NCBI GenBank assembly: GCA_045660745.1
Contig: JAZREJ010000022.1
Span: 13,232-77,231, forward strand
Direction of reading: 5' to 3'
DNA from: Eubacteriales bacterium
Lineage (GTDB): Bacteria > Bacillota > Clostridia > Oscillospirales > SIG627
Length of the DNA: 64,000 bases
This document shows, piece by piece, positions 6,557 to 17,375 of the stretch (positions are counted from its first letter, which is position 1; the number at the start of each line of letters is the position of its first letter). The notes beneath the pieces were generated by a model. It was not told the origin of the DNA. It did no database searches and saw only the letters and a list, made by a program, of their open reading frames with translations. The position numbers were made by a program, and so were the translations under genes.

Positions 6557-7927
6557 ATGAAACTCGTTTACGGCATTAACGACAAACCAAAAGGCGCATC
6601 CCTTATCGTATTCGCAATTCAACAGTTACTTGCAATTATGGCGGCAACCATCGCAGTTCCCGCAATAGTAGGAAACGGAATGACTGCTTCTGCAGCTATG
6701 TTCGGTGCAGGTATCGGTACACTCGTCTACCAGCTTTTCACAAAGTTTAAGAGCCCTGTATTCCTCGGCTCGTCATTCGCTTTCATCGGTTCCATGTTCG
6801 CAGCATTCGCGGGTGCAGCTTCTGTATCTCTCGGCTATCTCGGACTTATCCTTGGTGCGGTGTTCGCAGGACTTGTTTACGTTGTACTCGCACTCATTGT
6901 TAAATTTGTTGGTGTTAAGTGGATTGCAAAGCTTATGCCCGCAGTTGTAATCGGTCCTACCGTTGCTCTTATCGGTCTTTCTTTGGCAAGTGCAGCTATA
7001 AATGACGTATTCTCTTACGGACCCAAGCTTGATGATGGCAGTGCATTTGTTATGTCAACTCCCATATGGCTCTCAGTCATCTGTGCTCTTGTTACTTTCG
7101 CAGTAGTTACTATCTGCTCGGTATACGGCAAGAAGATGACAAAGCTTATTCCCTTTATCATCGGTATTCTTGCAGGCTACGTTGTAGCACTTATATTCAC
7201 GCTTATCGGAATTGCTACCGATAACACAGCTCTTCAGATCATCGACTTTACCCCATTTAAGAATCTCGTTGCTGACGGTGTAAACCTTTCAACCTTTGTT
7301 TCTCTTCCCGAATTTTCATTCCTTGAAGCCTTCAAGGGCGTTAAGGAGTTTGAGTGGTCATACGTTGCAACTGTTGCTGTTGCTTACGTTCCTGTTGCAT
7401 TCGTTGTATTCGCTGAACATATCGCAGACCACAAGAACCTTTCCTCTATCATCGAGTCCGATCTTCTTGAAGAGCCCGGTCTCCACAGAACTCTTCTCGG
7501 TGACGGTGTAGGCTCTATCGCAGGTGCATTCTTCGGCGGATGTCCCAACACTACATACGGCGAGTCCGTTGGATGTGTTGCAATCACAGGTAACGCTTCG
7601 GTAATCACAATTACAGTAACCGCTATTATGGCAGTTGTTGTGTCCTTCATCTCTCCCTTTGTTGCCTTCCTCGACTCCATCCCCGGATGCGTTATGGGCG
7701 GTGTATGTATCACCCTTTATGGCTTCATCGCTGTATCAGGTCTTAAGATGATTCAGAAGGTTGACCTCGAGGACAACGCAAACCTCTTCACTATTGCTGC
7801 TATTCTTATCCCCGGTATCGGAGGTATGGCAATGTCCATCGGCAAGGTTACCATAACAGGTATCGCTTGCTCTCTCATTCTCGGCATTCTTGTAAACATC
7901 ATGCTTCACTCAAAGAAAAAGAACTAA
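6557..7927 (+). CDS. uraA: uracil/xanthine permease (NCS2 family, UraA/PyrP-like)
   Basis: PVFLGSSFAF, EHIADH and PNTTYGES NCS2 signature. Confidence 0.88.
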   Translation: MKLVYGINDKPKGASLIVFAIQQLLAIMAATIAVPAIVGNGMTASAAMFGAGIGTLVYQLFTKFKSPVFLGSSFAFIGSMFAAFAGAASVSLGYLGLILGAVFAGLVYVVLALIVKFVGVKWIAKLMPAVVIGPTVALIGLSLASAAINDVFSYGPKLDDGSAFVMSTPIWLSVICALVTFAVVTICSVYGKKMTKLIPFIIGILAGYVVALIFTLIGIATDNTALQIIDFTPFKNLVADGVNLSTFVSLPEFSFLEAFKGVKEFEWSYVATVAVAYVPVAFVVFAEHIADHKNLSSIIESDLLEEPGLHRTLLGDGVGSIAGAFFGGCPNTTYGESVGCVAITGNASVITITVTAIMAVVVSFISPFVAFLDSIPGCVMGGVCITLYGFIAVSGLKMIQKVDLEDNANLFTIAAILIPGIGGMAMSIGKVTITGIACSLILGILVNIMLHSKKKN

Positions 7928-7936
7928 AAAATAAGC

Positions 7937-7976
7937 AAAATACGGCAAAGATTCAAAAACTTTGCCGTATTTTTTT
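7937..7976 (+). terminator. terminator after uraA
   Basis: AAAATACGGCAAAG...CTTTGCCGTATTTTTTT. Confidence 0.85.
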
Positions 7977-7994
7977 ATATTTATACAAAAGTCC

Positions 7995-8023
7995 TTGACA
8001 AAACAAATAAAATGTAGTAGAAT
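7995..8023 (+). promoter_or_regulatory. sigmaA promoter of the aromatic amino acid operon
   Basis: TTGACA-17 nt-TAGAAT. Confidence 0.8.
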
Positions 8024-8053
8024 TCTTGTATTAAAAAAGAAGGAGAAAAAGGT

Positions 8054-8131
8054 ATGTTTAATAAGGCTTATTATTACTTTTATTACTTTAAACGAGACTG
8101 CCTGTTTTTCTCCGATTACAAAGGCTTTTAA
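8054..8131 (+). CDS. Tyr/Phe-rich attenuator leader peptide (25 aa, MFNKAYYYFYYFKRDCLFFSDYKGF)
   Basis: manual translation; AAGGAG RBS at 8040-8045; 6 Tyr and 6 Phe codons including seven consecutive (YYYFYYF); directly upstream of the Phe/Tyr operon. Confidence 0.9.
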   Translation: MFNKAYYYFYYFKRDCLFFSDYKGF

Positions 8132-8210
8132 TAAGCCCTTAACGAAAAGCAGACAGTCCGCAGCCGTTTGTGCTCATACTTTTGAGTACATGAGGGTGGC
8201 GGATTTTTTT
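8065..8210 (+). promoter_or_regulatory. transcription attenuator (protector, antiterminator and terminator)
   Basis: 8065-8073 pairs with 8129-8137; 8096-8110 pairs with 8144-8158; 8155-8161 pairs with 8199-8205 around an inner stem 8169-8176/8183-8190, with T7 at 8204-8210. Confidence 0.82.
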
Positions 8211-8223
8211 ATTGGAGGATAAT

Positions 8224-9414
8224 ATGTTTTCAGAAAAAATGCTCGAAATGGGCAGACACGGCTCTGTTATACGCGAAATTGCGGAGCACTCAAAAAAGAG
8301 AAAAGCGGAAATAGGTGAGGACAAGGTGTTCGATTTCAGTATCGGGAACCCAAGTATCCCCTGCCCCGAAGCCTTTACAAAAACACTTATCGAGCTTTTG
8401 AATAACACGGACCCCGTCGAGCTTCACAGCTATACTGCGGCACAGGGTGACCCTACGGTACGCCGCACGCTTGCTGAAAACATAAAAAATAAATACGGTT
8501 TTGAGCAAGATGCCGACCTCATGTATCTCACCTGCGGTGCTTCCTCCTCTCTTTCTATCGTATTCAAAGCGTTGCTCCATGCGGAGGATGAGGTAATGGT
8601 AATCGCTCCATACTTTCCGGAATACAGAGCATTTGTCGAAAACGTCGATGCAACTCTTTGCGTTGTCCCCTGTGACCCTGAAACACTTGAGGTAAATTTT
8701 GAGGATATCGAAAAGTGCATAAACGAAAAGACAAGAGCGATAATCATAAATTCCCCGTCCAATCCCACCGGTGCCGTGATGCCTCGCAATGAAATTGAAA
8801 AAATAGCTGAGATACTCGATAAAAAATCAAAGGAATATTCAAACCCCATTTTCATTGTCGCAGATGAACCTTACAGAGAAGTGGCTTTCGACGGTGTAGA
8901 AATTCCGTACATTCCGGAAATTTACGCAAACACTGTCGTTTGCAACTCCTACAGCAAATCTCTCTCAGTACCGGGTGAGAGAATGGGTTATATTGCAGTT
9001 TCTCCGAGAGTATCCAATGCGAAAGAATTCTACTATGCAATATGCGGTGCGGGACGCTGTATGGGATATATCTGTGCCCCCTCACTTCTGCAGAAGGCTA
9101 TTGCTATATGTGATACACTCCCATGCGACGTTTCTGCATACGACAAAAACCGCAAGCTTTTATACTCCTCTCTTACCGATATAGGCTACACCTGCGTTAT
9201 GCCCGAGGGCGCTTTTTACCTGTTTGTAAAAGCTCTTGAAAAGGATGCGGGAGCATTCTGCGAAAAAGCGAAGGAGGAAGAATTGCTGTTTGTTCCCTCT
9301 GACTCCTTCGGAGTTACGGGATGGGTCAGAATCGCCTACTGCACAAGCTATTCCCAGATAGAAAACTCAATCCCCGCTTTTAAAAAGCTTTACGAAAAAT
9401 ACCAGGAGAAATAA
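8224..9414 (+). CDS. PLP-dependent aminotransferase class I/II (probable aromatic amino acid aminotransferase)
   Basis: NSPSNPTG, DEPY and SYSKSLSVPGERMG (PLP lysine); first gene of the aro operon. Confidence 0.85.
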   Translation: MFSEKMLEMGRHGSVIREIAEHSKKRKAEIGEDKVFDFSIGNPSIPCPEAFTKTLIELLNNTDPVELHSYTAAQGDPTVRRTLAENIKNKYGFEQDADLMYLTCGASSSLSIVFKALLHAEDEVMVIAPYFPEYRAFVENVDATLCVVPCDPETLEVNFEDIEKCINEKTRAIIINSPSNPTGAVMPRNEIEKIAEILDKKSKEYSNPIFIVADEPYREVAFDGVEIPYIPEIYANTVVCNSYSKSLSVPGERMGYIAVSPRVSNAKEFYYAICGAGRCMGYICAPSLLQKAIAICDTLPCDVSAYDKNRKLLYSSLTDIGYTCVMPEGAFYLFVKALEKDAGAFCEKAKEEELLFVPSDSFGVTGWVRIAYCTSYSQIENSIPAFKKLYEKYQEK

Positions 9415-9415
9415 T

Positions 9416-10504
9416 ATGACAGATCTTGAAAAAGCAAGAATTACAATAAATGAAGTGGACCGTGAGATGTGCCGTCTCTTTGAAGAAAGAATGAACGCAG
9501 TAAAGATAGTTGCCGCTTACAAGCAAGAGCACGGACTTCCGGTGGACGATTTCGCAAGAGAAGAAGAAATGATTAAGAGAAATTCCAAGCTTCTCTCGGA
9601 TGAGGAGCTTCGCTCCTATTACGTAAACTTCCTTCGCTCTGCCATCGACATATCAAAAAGCTTTCAGCACAAGCTTCTCGACGGAATGAGGGTTGCCTAC
9701 AGTGGTGTTGCGGGCGCATTTGCAAATATTGTAGCAAAGCGCATATTCCCGGATGCAACAGCCGTTCCTTACCCCGATTTCAAATCAGCCTACAAGGCTT
9801 GCGAGGAGGGAGCTTGTGACGTCGTGCTTCTGCCTGTTGAGAATAGTCAGAACGGTGATGTCGGAAACGTAATGGACCTCGCGTTTTTCGGAACACTTTT
9901 TATTAACGGAATATACGAGGCGGAAATAGTACAGAATCTTATCGCACCGCAAGGGGCAACACTTAACAGTATAAAAAAGGTAATAAGCCACCCTCAGGCA
10001 TTAGGTCAGTGCGCATCTTTTATTGAAAAGCATGGCTTTGAAACAGAAGAAGCGGTCAATACTGCAGTAGCGGCGGAGTACGTCGCAAAGCTTAACCGCA
10101 CAGACGTTGCGGCAATCGGAAGCGTTGAGGCTTGCGAACAGTTCGGACTTGCGAAAATTGAAGCACATATAAATGAAGCATCCAACAACACCACCCGTTT
10201 TGCAGTATTTTCAAGAGCAAGACGCACCCCGTCTCCCAAGGACAAGCACTTTATAACAGTGTTTACGGTTAAAAACGAAGCAGGCTCTCTCGGACGTGCT
10301 ATATCTGTTATAGGAGAACACGGATTTAACCTCAAAGCACTTAAGAGCCGTCCAACCAAGGAGCTTATCTGGGATTATTACTTCTACGCCGAGGGCGAGG
10401 GAGACATCTACTCGGAAAACGGTGAGGAAATGAAGAAAAAGCTCAAAGCGTGCTGTTCCCACTTCAAGGTGCTTGGCACATACGAAAAAGAATTAAAGGT
10501 GTAA
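9416..10504 (+). CDS. pheA: bifunctional chorismate mutase / prephenate dehydratase
   Basis: N-terminal AroQ-type chorismate mutase; PVENS, SHPQALGQC, NTTRF; ACT domain with SRP. Confidence 0.92.
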   Translation: MTDLEKARITINEVDREMCRLFEERMNAVKIVAAYKQEHGLPVDDFAREEEMIKRNSKLLSDEELRSYYVNFLRSAIDISKSFQHKLLDGMRVAYSGVAGAFANIVAKRIFPDATAVPYPDFKSAYKACEEGACDVVLLPVENSQNGDVGNVMDLAFFGTLFINGIYEAEIVQNLIAPQGATLNSIKKVISHPQALGQCASFIEKHGFETEEAVNTAVAAEYVAKLNRTDVAAIGSVEACEQFGLAKIEAHINEASNNTTRFAVFSRARRTPSPKDKHFITVFTVKNEAGSLGRAISVIGEHGFNLKALKSRPTKELIWDYYFYAEGEGDIYSENGEEMKKKLKACCSHFKVLGTYEKELKV

Positions 10505-10508
10505 AGAA

Positions 10509-11525
10509 ATGATCATTCCTGTTAAAACTTCTCAAGGCTTTTACAATATAATACTTGGCAGAGGCGAGTTGTCGCGCGCTGACAGCTATATGAAGCTTGA
10601 CCGCCGTGTGCTTGTAGTTACCGACTCCGGAGTTCCGAAGACATACGCCGAAAAGGTTGCATCTCTTTGCAAAGCACCTGTCATTTACACCATTCCCGAA
10701 GGAGAAGCATCTAAGACTATTGACAGTTTCAAGACTCTTCTCGAAGTGCTTGTTGAAAACTCATTTACACGCTCGGACTGCGTTGTTGCAGTAGGTGGAG
10801 GCGTTGTTGGAGATCTTTCCGGATTTGTGGCATCGACATTTATGAGAGGCATTGATTTTTATAACATACCAACGACACTTTTGTCACAAGTGGACTCTTC
10901 TGTCGGCGGAAAGACAGCGGTAGATTTTATGGGCATCAAGAATATAGTAGGTGCTTTTTATCCTCCGAAATGTGTTATTGTTGATCCCGACACCCTCAAA
11001 ACACTGCCTGCAAGACAAATATCAAACGGTATGGCGGAAGCAATAAAAATGTCAGCAACCTGTGACACTGAGCTTTTTGAGTTTCTTGAGACATGTACCA
11101 CAACTGACTCTCGTTCCCTCGATTTTATAATATCACGTTCGCTTCTTATAAAGAAGAGTGTTGTTGAAAAGGACGAGAAAGAATCGAATCTGCGGCGTGT
11201 ACTTAATTTCGGTCATACGCTCGCACACGCGCTTGAATCCTCAGAAAGCTTTTCCGATCTTTATCACGGAGAAGCAGTTGCCATAGGTATGCTTCCAATG
11301 TGCTCAAAAGCAGTGCGCAAGAGACTTTTGAAAATACTTGAGCGTTTCTCTCTTCCAACAGAAATTTCAGCCGATGCGCAAAAACTTATAGATTTCGCCC
11401 GTCATGACAAGAAGAAGTCGGGAGATCACATAAATCTTATATTTGTACCCGACGCGGGTCGTTTTGAAGAAAAAAAGATACTCTTTCAGGAATATGAAAG
11501 TTTGATACGGGAGGCAGTTGAATGA
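10509..11525 (+). CDS. aroB: 3-dehydroquinate synthase
   Basis: GGGVVGDL, PTTLLSQVDSSVGGKT, LNFGHT and HGEAV. Confidence 0.96.
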   Translation: MIIPVKTSQGFYNIILGRGELSRADSYMKLDRRVLVVTDSGVPKTYAEKVASLCKAPVIYTIPEGEASKTIDSFKTLLEVLVENSFTRSDCVVAVGGGVVGDLSGFVASTFMRGIDFYNIPTTLLSQVDSSVGGKTAVDFMGIKNIVGAFYPPKCVIVDPDTLKTLPARQISNGMAEAIKMSATCDTELFEFLETCTTTDSRSLDFIISRSLLIKKSVVEKDEKESNLRRVLNFGHTLAHALESSESFSDLYHGEAVAIGMLPMCSKAVRKRLLKILERFSLPTEISADAQKLIDFARHDKKKSGDHINLIFVPDAGRFEEKKILFQEYESLIREAVE

Positions 11526-12619
11526 AAAATACGTTCGGTTCAAGTCTTGCTATAACCATTTACGGAGAAAGCCACGGCCCATCGGTGGGTGCTGTGCTTG
11601 ACGGAATTGCCCCCGGCATTAAAATTGACGAAGACTATATAAACGAAAAACTTTCACTCCGCCGTCCCGTCGGAAAAATTTCCACTCCGAGACACGAAGA
11701 AGACCCTGTTTTCTTTGAATCGGGAGTCTTTAACGGATACACCACAGGAACTCCGATCTGCATAAGGATACCAAACGGAGATACACACTCAAAGGACTAC
11801 TCGGAAACACGCTTTCTTGCCCGTCCCTCCCACGCTGATTTTACCTCGAATGAAAAGTATCACGGATTTGAGGATTACCGCGGCGGCGGACACTTTTCGG
11901 GTAGAATAACCGTGGCGCTGGTTGCAGCAGGTGCAATCGTTATGCGAGCACTTGAAGAAAACGGCATTTTCATCGGTACGCACATTAAACGCTGTGCGGG
12001 TGTTGAGGATGCAAATTTTACAAGCGATATAAAGTCGGACATTGTAGCCCTTTCAAAAAAAGCTTTTGCCACCCTCTCAAATGAAGCGGGAGATAAAATG
12101 CAGAAGGAAATAGTTACAGCTCTCGAAGCTCGCGACAGTGTTGGAGGAGTTCTTGAAACAGCAATCGTCGGACTCCCCGCAGGAGTAGGCGAGCCGTGGT
12201 TTGATACCCTTGAATCAATCATATCGCACGCCGTCTTCTCGATTCCCGCAGTAAAGGGAATTGAATTCGGTGCTGGATTTGCCATTTCGGACATGCGAGG
12301 CTCCAAGGCAAACGACCCATTCAGAGCGTATAACGGAAATACCGTGACCTCCACCAACAACAGTGGAGGTATAAACGGTGGCATCTCTAACGGAATGCCC
12401 ATCATTTTTCGCACGGCGGTTCGTCCGACACCTACTATCGGAACAGAACAAAACACTGTCGATATATCAAAAAAAGTAAATGCAACGCTTGCCGCACGCG
12501 GACGCCATGACCCATGTATCGTACACAGGGCACGCATCGTTCAGGACTGTGTTTCAGCCCTTGTGATATACGATGCAATGGCAGTGAGATTCGGAACCGA
12601 TTGGGCGGTGAAAAAATGA
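11522..12619 (+). CDS. aroC: chorismate synthase
   Basis: GESHG, RPSHAD, GGINGGISNG and GRHDPC. Confidence 0.96.
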   Translation: MKNTFGSSLAITIYGESHGPSVGAVLDGIAPGIKIDEDYINEKLSLRRPVGKISTPRHEEDPVFFESGVFNGYTTGTPICIRIPNGDTHSKDYSETRFLARPSHADFTSNEKYHGFEDYRGGGHFSGRITVALVAAGAIVMRALEENGIFIGTHIKRCAGVEDANFTSDIKSDIVALSKKAFATLSNEAGDKMQKEIVTALEARDSVGGVLETAIVGLPAGVGEPWFDTLESIISHAVFSIPAVKGIEFGAGFAISDMRGSKANDPFRAYNGNTVTSTNNSGGINGGISNGMPIIFRTAVRPTPTIGTEQNTVDISKKVNATLAARGRHDPCIVHRARIVQDCVSALVIYDAMAVRFGTDWAVKK

Positions 12620-13854
12620 AGTACGGATGCATTGCCGAAAAGCTCTCACACAGCTTTTCAAAAGAAATACATTCATATCTTGCATCTTACCCCTACGAGC
12701 TTCGCGAAATTGCCAAAGGAGATCTTGACGCTTTTATGCGCGAAAAGGATTTTCTTGCAATAAACGTTACCATCCCTTATAAAGAGGACGTTATCCCATA
12801 CCTTGACGAAATATCCGAAACTGCAAAAAAGATAGGCGCAGTAAACACTATTGTCAACCGAAATGGCAAGCTTTACGGCTATAACACAGATTTTTTCGGA
12901 ATGCGCTCTCTCATTCTTGCAAACGAGATATCTGTAACAGGAAAAAAAGCTCTTGTGCTCGGCTCGGGTGGAACCTCAAAGACTGCTGCGGCAGTGCTTG
13001 AAGACCTGGGGGCACGAGAAATATACAAGCTTTCAAGAAGGGCGCAAAACGGATGCATAACCTATGACGAAGCACTTGAAAAGCATACTGACGCTGAGGT
13101 CATAATAAACACTACCCCCGTCGGAATGTACCCGAATATCGGAGTCTCTCCCATTGATATTTCCCTTTTTCCAAAGCTTTCTGCGGTAATTGATGCTGTG
13201 TACAATCCGTTACGCACAAGGCTTGTATCTGAGGCTCTTGAAAGAGGCGTTCCGGCAATCGGCGGTCTATATATGCTTGTCGCACAGGCGGCGCGTGCAT
13301 GCGAATTTTTCATTGATACTGATATTCCCGATGAAAAAATTTTGGATGTGTTCAAGATAATGTACAAAAAGACCGAAAATATCGTTCTCACGGGAATGCC
13401 GGGTGCAGGTAAGAGCACCGTAGGAAAGCTCCTTGCAAAAAAACTTGAAATGGACTTTGTTGACTCGGATGACGAAATAGTAAAAAAGATAGGAAAAAGC
13501 ATTCCTGAAATATTCTCCGAAAACGGTGAAAATGTCTTCCGCGACATCGAAAGCGAGGTTATAAAAGAGCTTTCGACAAGAAAGAATACAGTTATCGCAA
13601 CGGGAGGCGGAGTAATACTGCGACGCGAAAACACCGATCTCTTGCGAGAAAACGGAAGGATATACTTCCTTGATCGTCCACTTGAAAACATCCGTCCAAC
13701 AAGCGACCGACCGACAGCGCTCGACCGTGAGGCACTTGTAAAGCGCTACCGCGAGCGTTACGGCATCTACACTTCTTCCTGCGACGTGCATATCAAAACA
13801 AGTGAAGATGCACTCGAAAACACAAATATGATCATCGAGGATTTTAAAAAATGA
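12616..13854 (+). CDS. aroE: fused shikimate dehydrogenase / shikimate kinase (AroE-AroK)
   Basis: HSFS, NVTIPYK, GAVNT, NTD then GMPGAGKST and ATGGG; ATGA overlap with aroC. Confidence 0.92.
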   Translation: MKYGCIAEKLSHSFSKEIHSYLASYPYELREIAKGDLDAFMREKDFLAINVTIPYKEDVIPYLDEISETAKKIGAVNTIVNRNGKLYGYNTDFFGMRSLILANEISVTGKKALVLGSGGTSKTAAAVLEDLGAREIYKLSRRAQNGCITYDEALEKHTDAEVIINTTPVGMYPNIGVSPIDISLFPKLSAVIDAVYNPLRTRLVSEALERGVPAIGGLYMLVAQAARACEFFIDTDIPDEKILDVFKIMYKKTENIVLTGMPGAGKSTVGKLLAKKLEMDFVDSDDEIVKKIGKSIPEIFSENGENVFRDIESEVIKELSTRKNTVIATGGGVILRRENTDLLRENGRIYFLDRPLENIRPTSDRPTALDREALVKRYRERYGIYTSSCDVHIKTSEDALENTNMIIEDFKK

Positions 13855-14279
13855 AGTTACTTGTTATAAACGGCCCAAATCTTAACATGCTGGGAATCAG
13901 AGAACCCGGAATCTACGGAAAAGGCACCTATTCCGACCTCTGTGAAATGATATACAGCCACGCCAACAAAAAAGGCTTTGAAGTTGACATATTCCAGTCA
14001 AATCACGAAGGTGCACTCGTTGACAGAATACAAGAGGCTTACGGTAAGATTGACGGCATAGTCATAAATCCCGCCGCCTATACCCACACAAGCGTTGCTA
14101 TTCTTGACGCACTCAAGTCAATCGGTATACCGTTTGTTGAGGTTCACATTTCAAAGGTTGAAAACAGAGAAGCATTCAGACAGATAAGCTACATCCGTCC
14201 GCACGCCTTGAAAACTATTACAGGTCACGGCTTTGACGGATATCTTGAAGCGCTCGATTTGCTTCTGGAGGCTTTATGA
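13851..14279 (+). CDS. aroQ: type II 3-dehydroquinate dehydratase
   Basis: NGPNLNMLGIREP, QSNHEG, INPAAYTHTS and EVHIS. Confidence 0.96.
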   Translation: MKLLVINGPNLNMLGIREPGIYGKGTYSDLCEMIYSHANKKGFEVDIFQSNHEGALVDRIQEAYGKIDGIVINPAAYTHTSVAILDALKSIGIPFVEVHISKVENREAFRQISYIRPHALKTITGHGFDGYLEALDLLLEAL

Positions 14280-15478
14280 GAGTTGTAATATCCCCTTCGG
14301 TAGCTAAAGGACGTGTATCTGCCCCTCCCTCAAAATCAATGGCTCACCGCGCCCTTATATGTGCCGCTCTCTCGAAAAAGAGCACCGTTTCAAATATTGC
14401 GCTTTCCCGCGACATTGAAGTGACTCTTGACTGCCTGAAAAAAATGGGCGCACACATAACACAAGAGGGTGACTCCTACACGATAGGTGGTCTTGACCCC
14501 AAAAAAATTCCCGACGGATGTGAGCTTTACTGCCACGAAAGCGGAAGTACACTGCGTTTTATTATCCCTCTTTGCATGCTTAGCGAAGGACGAGTAACGC
14601 TCACAGGTGCCCCCCGACTCATGGAAAGACCTCTTTCGGTATATGAGGAGCTTGCGGAAAAGCTTGGAATTGAATTTAAAAAAGAAAATGGAAAAATAAC
14701 AGTCGGAGGCGGTCTTTGTGCAGGGGACTACAGTGTTCCCGGAAATATCTCAAGCCAGTTCATAACAGGGCTTTTGCTTGCGCTTTCCACTCTCCCCGAA
14801 AAGAGCACGCTCACTGTTACAGGACAGTTTGAAAGTGCTTCATACACAGACCTTACAGTTTCCGTCCTTAAAGAATTCGGAAAAAGCGTTACAAGAAACG
14901 GACGTGTTTTCACGGTGATTCCATCGGAATTTAAAAGCACCTATCACACAGTGGAGGGAGACTTTTCAAACGCCGCATATCTTGACGCACTAACTCTTAT
15001 CGGTGGAGAAGTAGAGGTCTCGGGACTTTCAAAAGACAGTCTTCAGGGAGACTCTGTATATAGAGACTTTTTCAAGCGAATGACAAAAGGATACGACCTT
15101 TTTGACATATCCGACTGTCCCGACAACGCACCGATACTTTTTGCGATGGCATCTGCTTTGAACGGCGGAGAATTTACAGGGACTGCAAGACTTAAAATAA
15201 AAGAAAGCGATCGCTCCGAGGCGATGAAAGAGGAGCTGTCAAAGCTTGGTGTTAACATCACAGTCGAAGAAAACCGAGTTATCGTACCAATAAGCACTCT
15301 CACCCCTCCCAAAGTGCCGATATTCTCCCACAACGATCATAGAATAGCCATGGCAATGGCTATCCTTCTGACTCTTGTCGGAGGTGAGATAGAAGGTGCC
15401 GAGGCAGTAAATAAAAGCTTCCCCGATTTTTGGGAGAAGCTTCAAGAATTACAGATAGGACTTGAAAAACATGCTTGA
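14276..15478 (+). CDS. aroA: EPSP synthase
   Basis: PPSKSMAHR, ESGSTLRF, SSQF, KESDR and DHRIAM. Confidence 0.96.
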   Translation: MRVVISPSVAKGRVSAPPSKSMAHRALICAALSKKSTVSNIALSRDIEVTLDCLKKMGAHITQEGDSYTIGGLDPKKIPDGCELYCHESGSTLRFIIPLCMLSEGRVTLTGAPRLMERPLSVYEELAEKLGIEFKKENGKITVGGGLCAGDYSVPGNISSQFITGLLLALSTLPEKSTLTVTGQFESASYTDLTVSVLKEFGKSVTRNGRVFTVIPSEFKSTYHTVEGDFSNAAYLDALTLIGGEVEVSGLSKDSLQGDSVYRDFFKRMTKGYDLFDISDCPDNAPILFAMASALNGGEFTGTARLKIKESDRSEAMKEELSKLGVNITVEENRVIVPISTLTPPKVPIFSHNDHRIAMAMAILLTLVGGEIEGAEAVNKSFPDFWEKLQELQIGLEKHA

Positions 15479-16322
15479 TAAAAATTTAAACATACTGATA
15501 GTAGGTCTTGGACTTCTCGGAGGAAGCTATGCCAAAAAGCTGTCCGCCGAGGGATACAGCGTAAAAGCGATAACCCGCGATCCAAAAACCATTGATTACG
15601 CGCTTGAACACGGATTCATAAGCTACGGTACGACAGAGATAGACGAAAAGCTCATTACGGATGCAGACCTTATAATTTTTGCACTTTACCCGAAGGTATT
15701 TATTCGTTGGATAGAAGAAAACGGACATCTTATAAAACCTCACACAGTCATAACGGACGTTACGGGTGTGAAGGGTGCTGTAGTTGATACAGTGCAGAAT
15801 AGGCTCCCCGAAAACATTGAGTTTATCTCAGCGCACCCCATGGCAGGACGAGAATCAAGCGGCATCGAATATGCCGACGACTCAATATTCAAGTGTGCAA
15901 ATTATATTGTGGTACCTACAGACAAAAACACCTCCGATGGAATAAAACTGTGCCGCGAGCTTGGTGAGACGCTCGGCTTTGCTAAAGTTTCCGAGCTTTC
16001 GGTAGAGGCGCACGACAGAATGATAGCGTTTCTATCCCAGCTTACCCACTGTATTGCGGTAAGTCTCATGTGTACGGATGACAACCCTGACCTTGTTAAA
16101 TATACGGGTGACTCTTTCCGAGACCTGACACGAATTGCTAACATAAACGACGAGATGTGGAGCGAACTTTTTCTTCTCAACCGCGACGCACTCCTTCATC
16201 AAATGGACAGATTCCGTGACTCCTTTGAAGAGCTTTACGGTACTATAAGAGACGGCAAACGTGACGAAATGCGCGCACTGATGCGCACTTCAACAGAGCG
16301 CCGCAGCAAATTCAATAAGTAA
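15471..16322 (+). CDS. tyrA: prephenate dehydrogenase
   Basis: GLGLLGGS, DVTGVK, HPMAG and FRDLTRIA. Confidence 0.93.
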   Translation: MLDKNLNILIVGLGLLGGSYAKKLSAEGYSVKAITRDPKTIDYALEHGFISYGTTEIDEKLITDADLIIFALYPKVFIRWIEENGHLIKPHTVITDVTGVKGAVVDTVQNRLPENIEFISAHPMAGRESSGIEYADDSIFKCANYIVVPTDKNTSDGIKLCRELGETLGFAKVSELSVEAHDRMIAFLSQLTHCIAVSLMCTDDNPDLVKYTGDSFRDLTRIANINDEMWSELFLLNRDALLHQMDRFRDSFEELYGTIRDGKRDEMRALMRTSTERRSKFNK

Positions 16323-16346
16323 AAAAGATTTAAAGAGGTAATTATT

Positions 16347-17375
16347 ATGAACATGAACTTTTCCAGAAAACTTCCTATTCCTCAGGACATGAAGCGCGAT
16401 TTCCCGCTCAATGCAGATATGCAGAAAATAAAAGAGACCCGAGCTGAGGAGATTAAAAAAATATTTACGGGTGAGAGTGACAAATTCATTCTTGTCATAG
16501 GCCCCTGCTCTGCAGATCATCGCGATTCGGTGCTTGAATATATTTCCCGTCTAAAAAGAGTCGAGGAACAGGTAAAGGATAAGATATTTATTATACCGAG
16601 AATATATACGAACAAGCCCCGTACAACAGGTGAAGGCTACAAGGGTATGCTTCATCAGCCCAACCCTAATGAAAAGCCCGACCTGTATCAGGGAATCGTC
16701 GCTATCAGGGAGCTTCATATGTCAGCACTCAAGGACTACGGCTTCACCTGTGCGGATGAAATGCTATACCCCGACAACCACAGATACCTTTCCGATCTTC
16801 TTGCTTACGTTGCTGTCGGCGCTCGCTCAGTTGAAAACCAGGAGCACAGACTTACCGCCAGCGGTCTTAACGTCCCCGTCGGAATGAAGAACCCGACAGG
16901 CGGAGACCTTTCCATAATGATGAACGCCATCAAGGCAGCTCAGAGCAGTCACTCCTTCATCTACAGAGGATGGGAGGTACAGAGTGCAGGTAATCCGCTC
17001 TCCCACGCAATACTTCGCGGTTACGTTGATTTTGCCGGCAAGAGCGTATCTAATTATCACTATGAGGACCTTGTAAAGCTTTCTTCTCTCTACGCTGAAT
17101 CGGGGCTTTCAAATCCTTCCGCGATAGTTGACACCAACCATGCAAACTCAGGCAAGAAATACCTTGAACAGACAAGAATCGCATCCGAAGTCGTTCACAG
17201 CAGAAATCACAACCCTGACATCAAGAGTCTTGTAAAGGGTCTTATGATTGAAAGCTATATTGAGGACGGTGCACAGGGTATTGGCGAAAACGTATTCGGT
17301 AAGTCAATTACCGACCCCTGCCTCGGCTGGGAAAAGACCGAATCGCTTATACTCGGTCTTGCAGACAAGCTGTAA
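16347..17375 (+). CDS. aroG: DAHP synthase (class I-alpha)
   Basis: IGPCS, KPRTT, VGARS, GMKNPT, HANS and SITDPC; feedback isoform cannot be assigned from sequence. Confidence 0.9.
   Translation: MNMNFSRKLPIPQDMKRDFPLNADMQKIKETRAEEIKKIFTGESDKFILVIGPCSADHRDSVLEYISRLKRVEEQVKDKIFIIPRIYTNKPRTTGEGYKGMLHQPNPNEKPDLYQGIVAIRELHMSALKDYGFTCADEMLYPDNHRYLSDLLAYVAVGARSVENQEHRLTASGLNVPVGMKNPTGGDLSIMMNAIKAAQSSHSFIYRGWEVQSAGNPLSHAILRGYVDFAGKSVSNYHYEDLVKLSSLYAESGLSNPSAIVDTNHANSGKKYLEQTRIASEVVHSRNHNPDIKSLVKGLMIESYIEDGAQGIGENVFGKSITDPCLGWEKTESLILGLADKL

Follow-up and report, generated by a model that had tools for sequence, protein, structure and literature searches.

The region directly upstream of an aro-phe-tyr operon in a member of the Clostridia is a candidate element that very probably acts as a leader-peptide (ribosome-mediated) transcription attenuator, and would track the supply of charged tRNA-Tyr, charged tRNA-Phe, or both. 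The core of this reading, that the operon is preceded by an attenuator using Tyr and Phe as control codons and not by a T-box, had been put forward in an initial annotation, and it now has strong comparative support. Positions given here are those within the window, the whole 64-kb stretch of DNA that was analysed, and are on the + strand unless stated otherwise.

Anatomy of the leader and its operon

The sequence anatomy of the region is established directly, as are its conservation, its covariation and its association with genes of the pathway. The features, in order along the DNA, are these.

7995-8023, + strand: sigma-70-type promoter, TTGACA-17-TAGAAT, with 11 of 12 consensus matches
8040-8045, + strand: Shine-Dalgarno sequence (SD) AAGGAG of the leader ORF, 8 nt 5' of the ATG, read directly
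8042-8059, + strand: region 1, the SD/start segment, paired with 8095-8113 (region 2) in the minimum-free-energy fold; a proposed anti-antiterminator that would also sequester the leader SD
8054-8131, + strand: leader ORF of 25 codons plus TAA (8129-8131), ATG at 8054, peptide MFNKAYYYFYYFKRDCLFFSDYKGF, from the sequence and homologous uORFs
8069-8089, + strand: control codons, seven consecutive Tyr/Phe codons (TAT TAT TAC TTT TAT TAC TTT), read directly
8096-8110, + strand: region 2, 5' arm of the antiterminator (helix ii), inside the uORF and encoding D-C-L-F-F; compensatory changes keep the helix
8123-8137, + strand: hairpin GGCUU/AAGCC at the apex of the antiterminator; the uORF stop (8129-8131) lies in its loop, from the fold
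8144-8158, + strand: region 3, 3' arm of helix ii, whose final 3-4 nt (8155/8156-8158) double as the terminator base, from sequence, fold and covariation
8155-8210, + strand: predicted intrinsic terminator (attenuator), an interrupted stem 8156-8176 / 8183-8204 followed by a U run at 8204-8210, from RNAfold and conservation
8224-17375, + strand: nine-gene aromatic operon under the proposed control, from Pfam matches and ORF layout, as for each of its genes below
8224-9414, + strand: aminotransferase, gene 1
9416-10504, + strand: chorismate mutase-prephenate dehydratase (CM-PDT; pheA), gene 2
between 10504 and 15462, + strand: aroB, aroC, aroE/aroK fusion, aroQ and aroA, genes 3-7 in that order
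15462-16322, + strand: prephenate dehydrogenase (tyrA)
16347-17375, + strand: DAHP synthase, the last gene of the operon

The initial annotation had named the promoter, the ribosome-binding site, the leader ORF and its run of seven adjacent aromatic codons, and each was found again at these positions; the transcript probably starts near 8030. The leader ORF holds six Tyr, six Phe and no Trp codons among its 25, and Pfam matches bear out the aro-phe-tyr operon that had been read downstream. The 5' leader of this biosynthetic operon carries a short uORF with its own SD and start codon (8040-8131), and the codon cluster matches the products of the regulated pathway (seven Tyr/Phe codons before a pheA/tyrA/aro operon). 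The intrinsic terminator (stem 8156-8204 and U7) follows the leader ORF and comes before the first structural gene.

The terminator also lies where it had been placed, with RNAfold pairing 8156-8176 with 8183-8204 ahead of the T run at 8204-8210. The whole leader folds at -51 kcal/mol (z = -3.3), and none of 200 shuffles folds as well. A simple terminator scan made no + strand call at this terminator, because the stem is long and interrupted, and gave only a minus-strand site (8161-8149); the predicted terminator is called from its fold and its conservation. All nine pairs of its upper stem show two-sided changes among 110 related leaders.

Helix ii was likewise recovered at 8096-8110 with 8144-8158, and consists of 13 Watson-Crick pairs, one G.U pair and one C.A mismatch. 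We find that its conserved competitor is the pairing of the 5' arm with the uORF's own Shine-Dalgarno/start region, rather than helix i, the third helix of the initial annotation. In the window the SD/start:arm duplex has an energy of -18.3 kcal/mol (z = -2.3) and is part of the minimum-free-energy fold. Helix i (8065-8073 with 8129-8137) does form nine perfect base pairs there (-12.0 kcal/mol, z = -3.9), but it is lineage-specific and not a feature of the family. For a comparable pairing of aromatic run and stop region, the median z over 110 leaders is 0.08 and only 8 of them score z <= -1.64, and helix i was dropped from the mechanism.

A family of related leaders

Upstream regions of relatives were compared on two sets of leaders, and in both (14 and 110 leaders) the aromatic-rich uORF is conserved and the stems covary. 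With covariance model R1, the element was found in 16 of 51 genomes of the family and in 11 of 151 genomes sampled across the order; model R2 found it in 4 of 150 genomes across the class (G000 is included in all three counts). The arrangement seen in the window recurs in 14 related genomes among the covariance-model matches. A search pattern that specified helix ii and the terminator only, and not the uORF, returned 110 copies on 106 stretches of named MAG contigs. The MAGs that carry them are labelled Acutalibacteraceae, Oscillospiraceae and similar.

In every one of these 110 copies a Tyr/Phe-rich ORF runs on into the 5' arm of helix ii and has its stop codon between the two arms; two of the copies are truncated where their sequence stretch ends. 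The homologous uORFs, present in every aligned leader, are 17-29 codons long with a median of four Tyr and four Phe codons, and the longest aromatic run is at least four codons in 106 of the 110. An SD-like motif precedes the start codon of the Tyr/Phe frame in 107 leaders, whereas in the two alternative frames just 24 and 8 leaders have an open stretch that includes a start codon. Of the codons that the Tyr/Phe frame places in the last 18 nt 5' of the arm, 92% encode Tyr or Phe, a composition that is kept by Tyr/Phe exchanges and synonymous substitutions. The aromatic run ends 5-8 nt before the arm in all 14 model-found leaders (6 nt in the window). A promoter-like site lies at an equal distance in 98 of the 110 leaders, with the end of the -10 box mostly 29-37 nt 5' of the uORF start.

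The alignment of 14 leaders has 90.4% of its cells paired, with two-sided changes at 12 pairs. None of 500 shuffles reaches this; control alignments slid out of register are 31-40% paired. The 110-leader alignment gives 89.3% and 15 such pairs (0 of 500 shuffles). Both alignments were fitted to the model, and most of the 110 sequences were picked by a pattern that fixes the core of helix ii, so the invariance there is partly a product of selection. Sequence conservation is strong in the helix ii core and in the motif ACAGUCCGC; outside the helices and the aromatic run the leader is variable.

The structures between and around the arms recur as well. Of the 110 leaders, 109 have a hairpin of -3 kcal/mol or lower between the helix ii arms, and in 104 this apical hairpin encloses the stop codon. 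The SD:arm pairing is present in all 14 model-found leaders (-16.6 to -25.7 kcal/mol); over the 110 its median energy is -20.3 kcal/mol, at most 5% of shuffles match it in 83, and the arm duplex overlaps the SD itself in 99.

The first gene 3' of the 110 copies, by Pfam-checked class, encodes DAHP synthase in 68 cases, an aminotransferase in 20, CM-PDT in 18 and another product in one, with three copies at a contig edge. Of the 107 copies that can be judged, 106 directly precede one of the three named classes. Within the genus of the window, 12 of 16 genomes have no match to the element and their operon is arranged differently, with pheA 3' of aroC in an operon of other gene order. Model R1 with its filters off also gave no match at the loci of these 12 genomes. 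Their closest aminotransferase is 46-50% identical, and upstream of it (11 of 12 inspected) there is a plain promoter and no leader.

A proposed ribosome-driven switch and its inputs

From the anatomy we infer an order of events, a response to starvation and a possible sensing of both amino acids. A search for sequencing runs that contain this sequence found DNA contigs and no RNA run. Transcription would start near 8030, and a ribosome would load at the strong SD and translate the 25-codon leader behind RNA polymerase. When Tyr and Phe are plentiful, this ribosome would pass the 5' arm (8096-8110), reach the stop codon in the apical hairpin (8123-8137), and there cover or split the antiterminator. 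The 5' arm would be free to re-pair with the SD/start segment (8042-8059), and the free 3' arm would join the full terminator (8156-8204 and U7), ending transcription near 8210. When Tyr-tRNA or Phe-tRNA is scarce, the ribosome would stall in the YYYFYYF run (8069-8089), 6 nt 5' of the arm, and the exposed arm could pair with 8144-8158 once that segment emerges from the polymerase. Formation of helix ii would remove the lowest 3-4 bp of the terminator and shift the remaining hairpin away from the U tract, and polymerase would continue into the operon. Transcripts that are not translated would adopt the default SD:arm pairing with the terminator, and would be terminated.

The placement of aromatic run, arm and stop codon suits the switch that had been predicted, and folding with ribosome constraints gave a mixed picture of it. 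When pairs spanning the ribosome are forbidden, a condition that partly builds the result in, helix ii forms next to a stalled ribosome and in most leaders competes for the base of the terminator, whereas it is lost in all 14 once the ribosome is placed at the stop codon. When such pairs are allowed, equilibrium folds with a simple ribosome mask show no consistent switch across the 14 leaders. In these masked folds, with the stall set at the first codon of the aromatic run or at its middle, helix ii has a value below 0.05 in 8 of the 14, because the arm stays paired with the SD.

How helix ii would disable the terminator deserves the same caution. The initial annotation had helix ii robbing the terminator of its base, and the two do share nucleotides, but only 3-4 of them (about 2 in homologue L018 by eye, with the terminator beginning at CCGC), far below the 6-11 nt described for enteric leader attenuators (PMC3064811). 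Antitermination by plain sequestration is thus less certain than first claimed. Without the 4 shared nt, the terminator stem of the window still folds at -19.4 kcal/mol, compared with -26.8 kcal/mol for the stem alone, and the hairpins of the leaders folded retain -8 to -19 kcal/mol. The discussion of overlaps in PMC3064811 holds that a terminator can still form to some extent when the overlap is short, and it also provides a precedent, the 3-nt overlap of the B. subtilis trp leader.

In its fullest form the proposal has several parts. Either uncharged tRNA-Tyr or uncharged tRNA-Phe would open the switch, and across a large group of uncultured Clostridia from gut and rumen the synthesis of aromatic amino acids would be governed mainly by this family. 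Three features would set the design apart from the enteric one. With region 1 formed by the leader's own SD, one pioneer ribosome per transcript would take a one-shot decision, and the antiterminator would need to take only 3-4 nt. About one in eight loci would have two complete tandem leader-attenuators before DAHP synthase, sharpening the response. Taken jointly, these parts form a tentative reading to which we give somewhat less than an even chance.

The strongest competitor, which we consider rather unlikely but well worth weighing, is that the attenuator senses one amino acid only, Phe or Tyr, and that codons of the other type are tolerated filler. Dual sensing may occur but is not assured, because only Phe limitation acted in Corynebacterium: as PMC11802643 recounts for C. 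glutamicum AroR (Phe-Tyr-Phe), limitation of Phe raises transcription and the availability of Tyr has no effect. Some members of our family are almost all Phe (one Tyr and five Phe, or none and five), and TTT is the commonest aromatic codon (404 occurrences, followed by TAT with 249, TAC with 135 and TTC with 72). Against a single input, 50% of all codons in the last 18 nt 5' of the arm encode Tyr over the 110 leaders, some leaders are dominated by Tyr (six Tyr and three Phe, or five and two), and the regulated units mostly contain enzymes of the Phe and the Tyr branch alike (pheA and tyrA) or the DAHP synthase that serves both. The Tyr share is also similar whatever gene lies downstream (0.39-0.47), with no clear specialisation of the Tyr:Phe ratio by gene class.

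A very improbable alternative is that the hairpins are a site for a protein or small ligand, as in a riboswitch or an attenuator governed by an RNA-binding protein, and that the uORF is incidental. The high conservation of the helix ii core and ACAGUCCGC is what binding sites often show, and the short overlap resembles that of the TRAP-dependent trp leader, which requires a protein (PMC3064811). An incidental uORF would hardly account for an SD, a start, an aromatic run and a stop within a hairpin in 110 of 110 copies retrieved by a pattern that ignored it, or for substitutions that preserve Tyr/Phe identity; moreover, no Rfam family matches, and the sequence beyond the helices and the aromatic run varies. 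Least probable of all is that the uORF product itself acts, either as a small hydrophobic peptide with its own function or by arresting the ribosome in response to free Tyr/Phe in the tunnel, in place of a response to tRNA charging: arrest peptides are widespread, TnaC senses Trp in this way, and the aromatic-rich nascent chain is conserved in composition, but arrest by an abundant amino acid would switch a biosynthetic operon on at plenty, the wrong sign, the conserved residues outside the run (D/G-C-L/P) are dictated by the RNA helix, peptide length and tail vary, and two of the 110 homologues read the arm in another frame (S-V-T-A-R), so that it is the RNA, not the peptide, that is conserved at the arm.

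Comparison with known leaders

Amino-acid operons of Firmicutes are usually credited to T-boxes, regulatory proteins or riboswitches, and T-box riboswitches (RF00230) are the usual amino-acid sensor of these bacteria. Rfam also holds leader families for the enteric Phe, Trp, His, Thr and Leu operons and a Lactococcus leu/phe leader. No Rfam family, T-box included, matched the element; the T-box model had no match at gathering score in the 64-kb window, and the T-box was missing from the 20 Rfam matches with E <= 10 in 7900-8300. Over 16 homologous loci the sole Rfam match was an unrelated L10 leader, with no T-box, and no curated Rfam amino-acid leader model matched the window or these loci. 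The exclusion of a T-box thus held up, and a T-box or any other Rfam family was ruled out as the identity of the element. The T-box model does match four sites elsewhere in the same genome, 5' of three aminoacyl-tRNA synthetase genes and of a serine acetyltransferase gene.

A ribosome-mediated attenuator with Tyr/Phe control codons would place a classical sensing mechanism over the whole shikimate/Phe/Tyr pathway in widespread uncultured gut and rumen Clostridia, where no Rfam model covers it. With a curated model, hundreds of MAGs could be better annotated, true starts of operons recognised, and organisms that make aromatic amino acids on demand picked out. Attenuator design could also be studied on the natural variation of the family, which concerns the Tyr:Phe ratio, the presence of one leader or of two in tandem, the overlap of 3-4 nt and the sequestration of the SD. 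Given that the mechanism is a textbook one and that Phe/Tyr leader peptides are known in Corynebacterium, no new class of regulation is added.

In architecture the element resembles the enteric pheL-pheA, trpL and hisL leaders, which share the short SD-led uORF with its run of product codons, the mutually exclusive 1:2, 2:3 and 3:4 pairings proposed here, and the intrinsic terminator before the first structural gene; as in pheL-pheA, the regulated genes include chorismate mutase-prephenate dehydratase. There is, however, no sequence or Rfam relationship. The control codons here mix Tyr and Phe, but it is the SD/start segment, not these codons, that serves as region 1; the stop codon of the uORF lies in the loop at the apex of the antiterminator, and the host is a Gram-positive anaerobe. 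The terminator overlap also differs, at 3-4 nt here and 6-11 nt in the enteric leaders as PMC3064811 gives it. Like the T-box, the element would sense tRNA charging through competition between antiterminator and terminator, but it would do so via a translating ribosome and not by direct binding of tRNA. The TRAP trp leader of B. subtilis has a very short overlap too (3 nt; PMC3064811) and likewise controls an aromatic operon of a Firmicute. It uses a Trp-activated RNA-binding protein and (G/U)AG repeats and has no leader peptide, and the conserved core of our family has no such repeats.

Two further published systems have aromatic leader codons. The C. glutamicum aroR leader peptide, 5' of aroF (Neshat et al. 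2014, via PMC11802643), combines Phe and Tyr codons with ribosome-mediated attenuation of a DAHP synthase operon. Compared by its description there, it is actinobacterial and has a Phe-Tyr-Phe triplet, in contrast to the aromatic runs of 4-9 codons found here. The uORFC-13-1 motif of Acholeplasma, a comparative-genomics prediction, is a candidate Phe uORF just 5' of an intrinsic terminator and upstream of aroF (DAHP synthase), with a U run encoding at least one Phe and 24 representatives from Acholeplasma and environmental sequences (PMC8632094). Like our family it places Phe codons in a uORF ahead of a terminator and of DAHP synthase, and its lineage is related to Firmicutes; the motif as described in PMC8632094 includes no Tyr component, and it is absent from the Rfam copy searched, or at least gives no match to this region.

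The initial annotation had suggested that a dual Tyr/Phe leader-peptide attenuator was new. In the main text of openly accessible papers (an earlier prediction may exist elsewhere) we found no description of this leader in Clostridia, and that part of the claim stands; as a general claim it was too strong, given what PMC11802643 and PMC8632094 report. Because the aroR and uORFC-13-1 analogues are published, the element is not a new mechanism; it is a new, well conserved family of an already known one, set apart from both analogues by their descriptions.

The leader and its operon

A re-reading of the sequence bears out the anatomy that the initial annotation gave for 7995-8223, namely a Tyr/Phe leader peptide followed by helix i, in which aromatic codons pair with the stop region, helix ii as antiterminator, and a terminator. 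The features are as follows.

6557-7927, xanthine/uracil-type permease gene, upstream of the leader
7995-8023, + strand, near-consensus promoter TTGACA-17-TAGAAT, 11/12 consensus matches
8040-8045, + strand, Shine-Dalgarno (SD) sequence AAGGAG of the leader ORF (uORF), read from sequence
ATG 8054 to TAA 8129-8131, + strand, uORF of 25 codons, peptide MFNKAYYYFYYFKRDCLFFSDYKGF
8069-8089, + strand, seven consecutive aromatic codons of the uORF, read from sequence
8065-8073 with 8129-8137, + strand, helix i, 9 perfect pairs
8096-8110 (5' arm) with 8144-8158 (3' arm), + strand, helix ii, 14/15 paired, one C.A mismatch
8156-8176 with 8183-8204, then seven U, + strand, terminator, a long interrupted stem (RNAfold)

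The uORF has six Tyr codons, six Phe codons and no Trp codon. RNAfold gives the leader a folding energy of -51 kcal/mol (z = -3.3; 0/200 shuffles as good), and a simple terminator scanner did not flag the stem at 8156-8204. Rfam gives no sign of a T-box: the window has no family at gathering score, and the 401 bases around the leader yield noise only at E <= 10, with no T-box.

Nine same-direction genes follow from 8224 onward, in the order aminotransferase, chorismate mutase-prephenate dehydratase (CM-PDT), aroB, aroC, aroE/aroK fusion, aroQ, aroA, prephenate dehydrogenase and DAHP synthase. Directly 3' of the permease gene, a hairpin (ACGGCAAAG ... CTTTGCCGT) with a T run is seen by eye at 7930-7982, unlisted by the terminator scanner; it looks like the permease gene's terminator, setting the aromatic operon apart as its own transcription unit. 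In a same-genus relative, a leader for ribosomal protein L10 (RF00557, 77.5 bits; L002:163-312) is found some 1.2 kb ahead of the attenuator, so the operon's upstream neighbourhood there differs from that of the window. That a single protein combines aroE-like and aroK domains is notable in its own right. As listed (ORFs 11522-12619 and 12514-13854), the ORF of this shikimate dehydrogenase/shikimate kinase fusion begins about 100 nt before aroC ends, and its true start is probably further downstream.

Conservation and distribution of the leader family

Comparison with related genomes, which the initial annotation had suggested as a check, shows that the leader recurs as a conserved family. Searching 61 relatives at the DNA level recovered it in three same-genus genomes, along with a 69-base uORF match upstream of a DAHP synthase gene in another genus. 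With a strict pattern, 5 of 51 genomes in the taxonomic family proved to be carriers. Covariance model R1, built on five leaders, places the element in 16 of those 51 (4/8 genera) and in 11/151 genomes sampled across the order, spread over six families; R2, built on 110 leaders (alignment A3), places it in 4/150 sampled across the class, one genome being unscorable. The window's own genome is counted in all of these R1 and R2 totals. Only 4/16 genomes of the window's genus have the element; in the remaining 12 the operon has another gene order, with pheA after aroC, and R1 matches nothing at those loci.

A search pattern limited to the core of helix ii, the junction motif and the 3' arm of the terminator matched 106 stretches, with 110 copies, in species-representative genomes. 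Among the matches listed (80 titles) all are MAGs, labelled Acutalibacteraceae (26), Clostridia (19), Eubacteriales (14), Oscillospiraceae (8), Lachnospiraceae (5), Ruminococcus (3) and other (5). The first gene after the 110 copies is DAHP synthase in 68, aminotransferase in 20, CM-PDT in 18 and another gene in 1, with 3 unassigned at a contig edge; representative genes of each class were confirmed with Pfam.

Although the pattern left the uORF unspecified, a Tyr/Phe-rich ORF reads into the 5' arm in 110/110 copies, of which two are truncated where the stretch ends and two use another frame through the arm. In A3 the uORF spans 17-29 codons, and its median content is 4 Tyr and 4 Phe; its longest aromatic run is at least four codons in 106/110 leaders, and Trp is present in 4. 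Tyr or Phe accounts for 92% of the uORF-frame codons in the last 18 nt upstream of the arm; an open frame with its own start codon exists in the other two frames in just 24 and 8 of 110 leaders. Relatives differ from one another by Tyr/Phe exchanges or by synonymous changes. The 5' arm supplies the codons for the residues after the aromatic run, D/G-C-L/P. In two homologues (L067, L123) the conserved arm is translated in a different frame (..YYYYYFS-V/E-TARTL) and the RNA helix is kept, so that the RNA is the conserved part there; this shows the peptide motif to be a by-product of RNA structure. A promoter-like site stands at constant distance in 98/110 leaders.

Helix ii and the terminator are, on sequence comparison, both maintained by compensatory changes. 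Across 14 leaders they are 90.4% paired with 12 pairs changed on both sides (0/500 shuffles as good; 31-40% paired in a slid-partner control), and across 110 leaders 89.3% paired with 15 such pairs (0/500 shuffles). The alignments were fitted to the model and most of the 110 leaders were selected by a pattern fixing the helix ii core, so the informative covariation is that of the terminator upper stem and position 119/253.

At 13/100 loci in the R1 search, two complete leaders precede one gene in tandem, separated by about 10-30 nt; the gene is mostly DAHP synthase (L032, L034, L039, L040, L055, L073, L081, L082, L087, L097, L125, L126 and L127). Divergence is often greater in the second copy, which at L126 and L127 includes a Trp codon. 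At four aminotransferase-led loci (L036, L042, L063, L099) a second near-consensus promoter (TTGACA ... TATAAT), whose spacer carries a short palindrome around CACG/CGTG, lies between the attenuator terminator and the gene; it may provide an attenuator-independent start, possibly repressor-controlled.

Competing structures and a proposed mechanism

Helix i, which had been proposed as the competitor of helix ii, is peculiar to the window's lineage and not conserved across the family. The conserved competitor is instead the SD/start region of the uORF, paired with the 5' arm and the bases following it.

8042-8059 with 8095-8113, SD/start region with 5' arm, in the minimum-free-energy fold of the window

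This pairing occurs in 14/14 model-derived leaders of differing sequence, at -16.6 to -25.7 kcal/mol. Among the 110 its median is -20.3 kcal/mol; at most 5% of shuffles match it in 83, and the SD is covered in 99.

The overlap by which helix ii was said to take bases from the terminator exists, but is limited to GUC(C), 3-4 nt. According to a study of the B. subtilis trp leader, antiterminator and terminator share 6-11 nt in enteric leader attenuators, about 7 in T-boxes and 3 in TRAP, and a short overlap is argued not to block terminator formation fully (PMC3064811). Taking away the four shared bases costs the terminator 4.7-11.9 kcal/mol of stability and would increase the distance between its hairpin and the U tract; the hairpins left over still have -8 to -19 kcal/mol.

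The model with the best support is an attenuator of the classical type with four regions. In it, the SD/start segment would be region 1, region 2 the 5' arm inside the uORF, region 3 the 3' arm with the terminator base, and region 4 the terminator 3' arm. The stop codon lies between the arms of helix ii in 110/110 leaders; a local hairpin forms there in 109/110 and encloses the stop codon in 104/110, so that the antiterminator is one long hairpin with the uORF end at its tip. With a ribosome stalled in the aromatic run, region 2 would be available for pairing with region 3; a ribosome at the stop codon would occupy the hairpin tip, and the terminator would therefore form. Untranslated RNA would adopt the 1:2 pairing plus the terminator. 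We infer this order of events and the response to starvation.

Ribosome-constrained folding, suggested in the initial annotation, switches in this way when no pair may span the ribosome: helix ii has a probability of 0.2-0.9 at early-run stalls in 12/14 leaders and of 0.00 with the ribosome at the stop codon in 14/14. Simple ribosome masking does not reproduce the expected switching. The initial observation is real and its interpretation correct in outline, with helix i and the details of the overlap in need of correction.

Relation to known regulators

Full-text literature searches found no description of such a leader in Clostridia, and Rfam has no matching model for the window, the leader region or the homologous loci. 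The window's own genome is predicted to use T-boxes elsewhere: four matches, one above gathering score, precede genes for a class II (D/K/N) tRNA synthetase, a ThrRS-like protein, a class I (I/L/M/V) synthetase and a serine acetyltransferase (contigs C9, C53, C39 and C20; L183-L186). The closest accounts lie in other groups. In C. glutamicum, aroR is described as a Phe-Tyr-Phe leader peptide before aroF, with an effect from Phe limitation and none from Tyr limitation (PMC11802643); in Acholeplasma, a Phe uORF before aroF has been predicted (PMC8632094).

The Tyr/Phe leader family is new and well-populated, and it merits a curated model. Its design has some unusual features: the SD can be sequestered by pairing, the overlap is minimal, the stop codon sits at the tip of the hairpin, and some copies occur in tandem. 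It belongs to a known kind of regulator and introduces no new principle, the mechanism being that of pheL, trpL and hisL.
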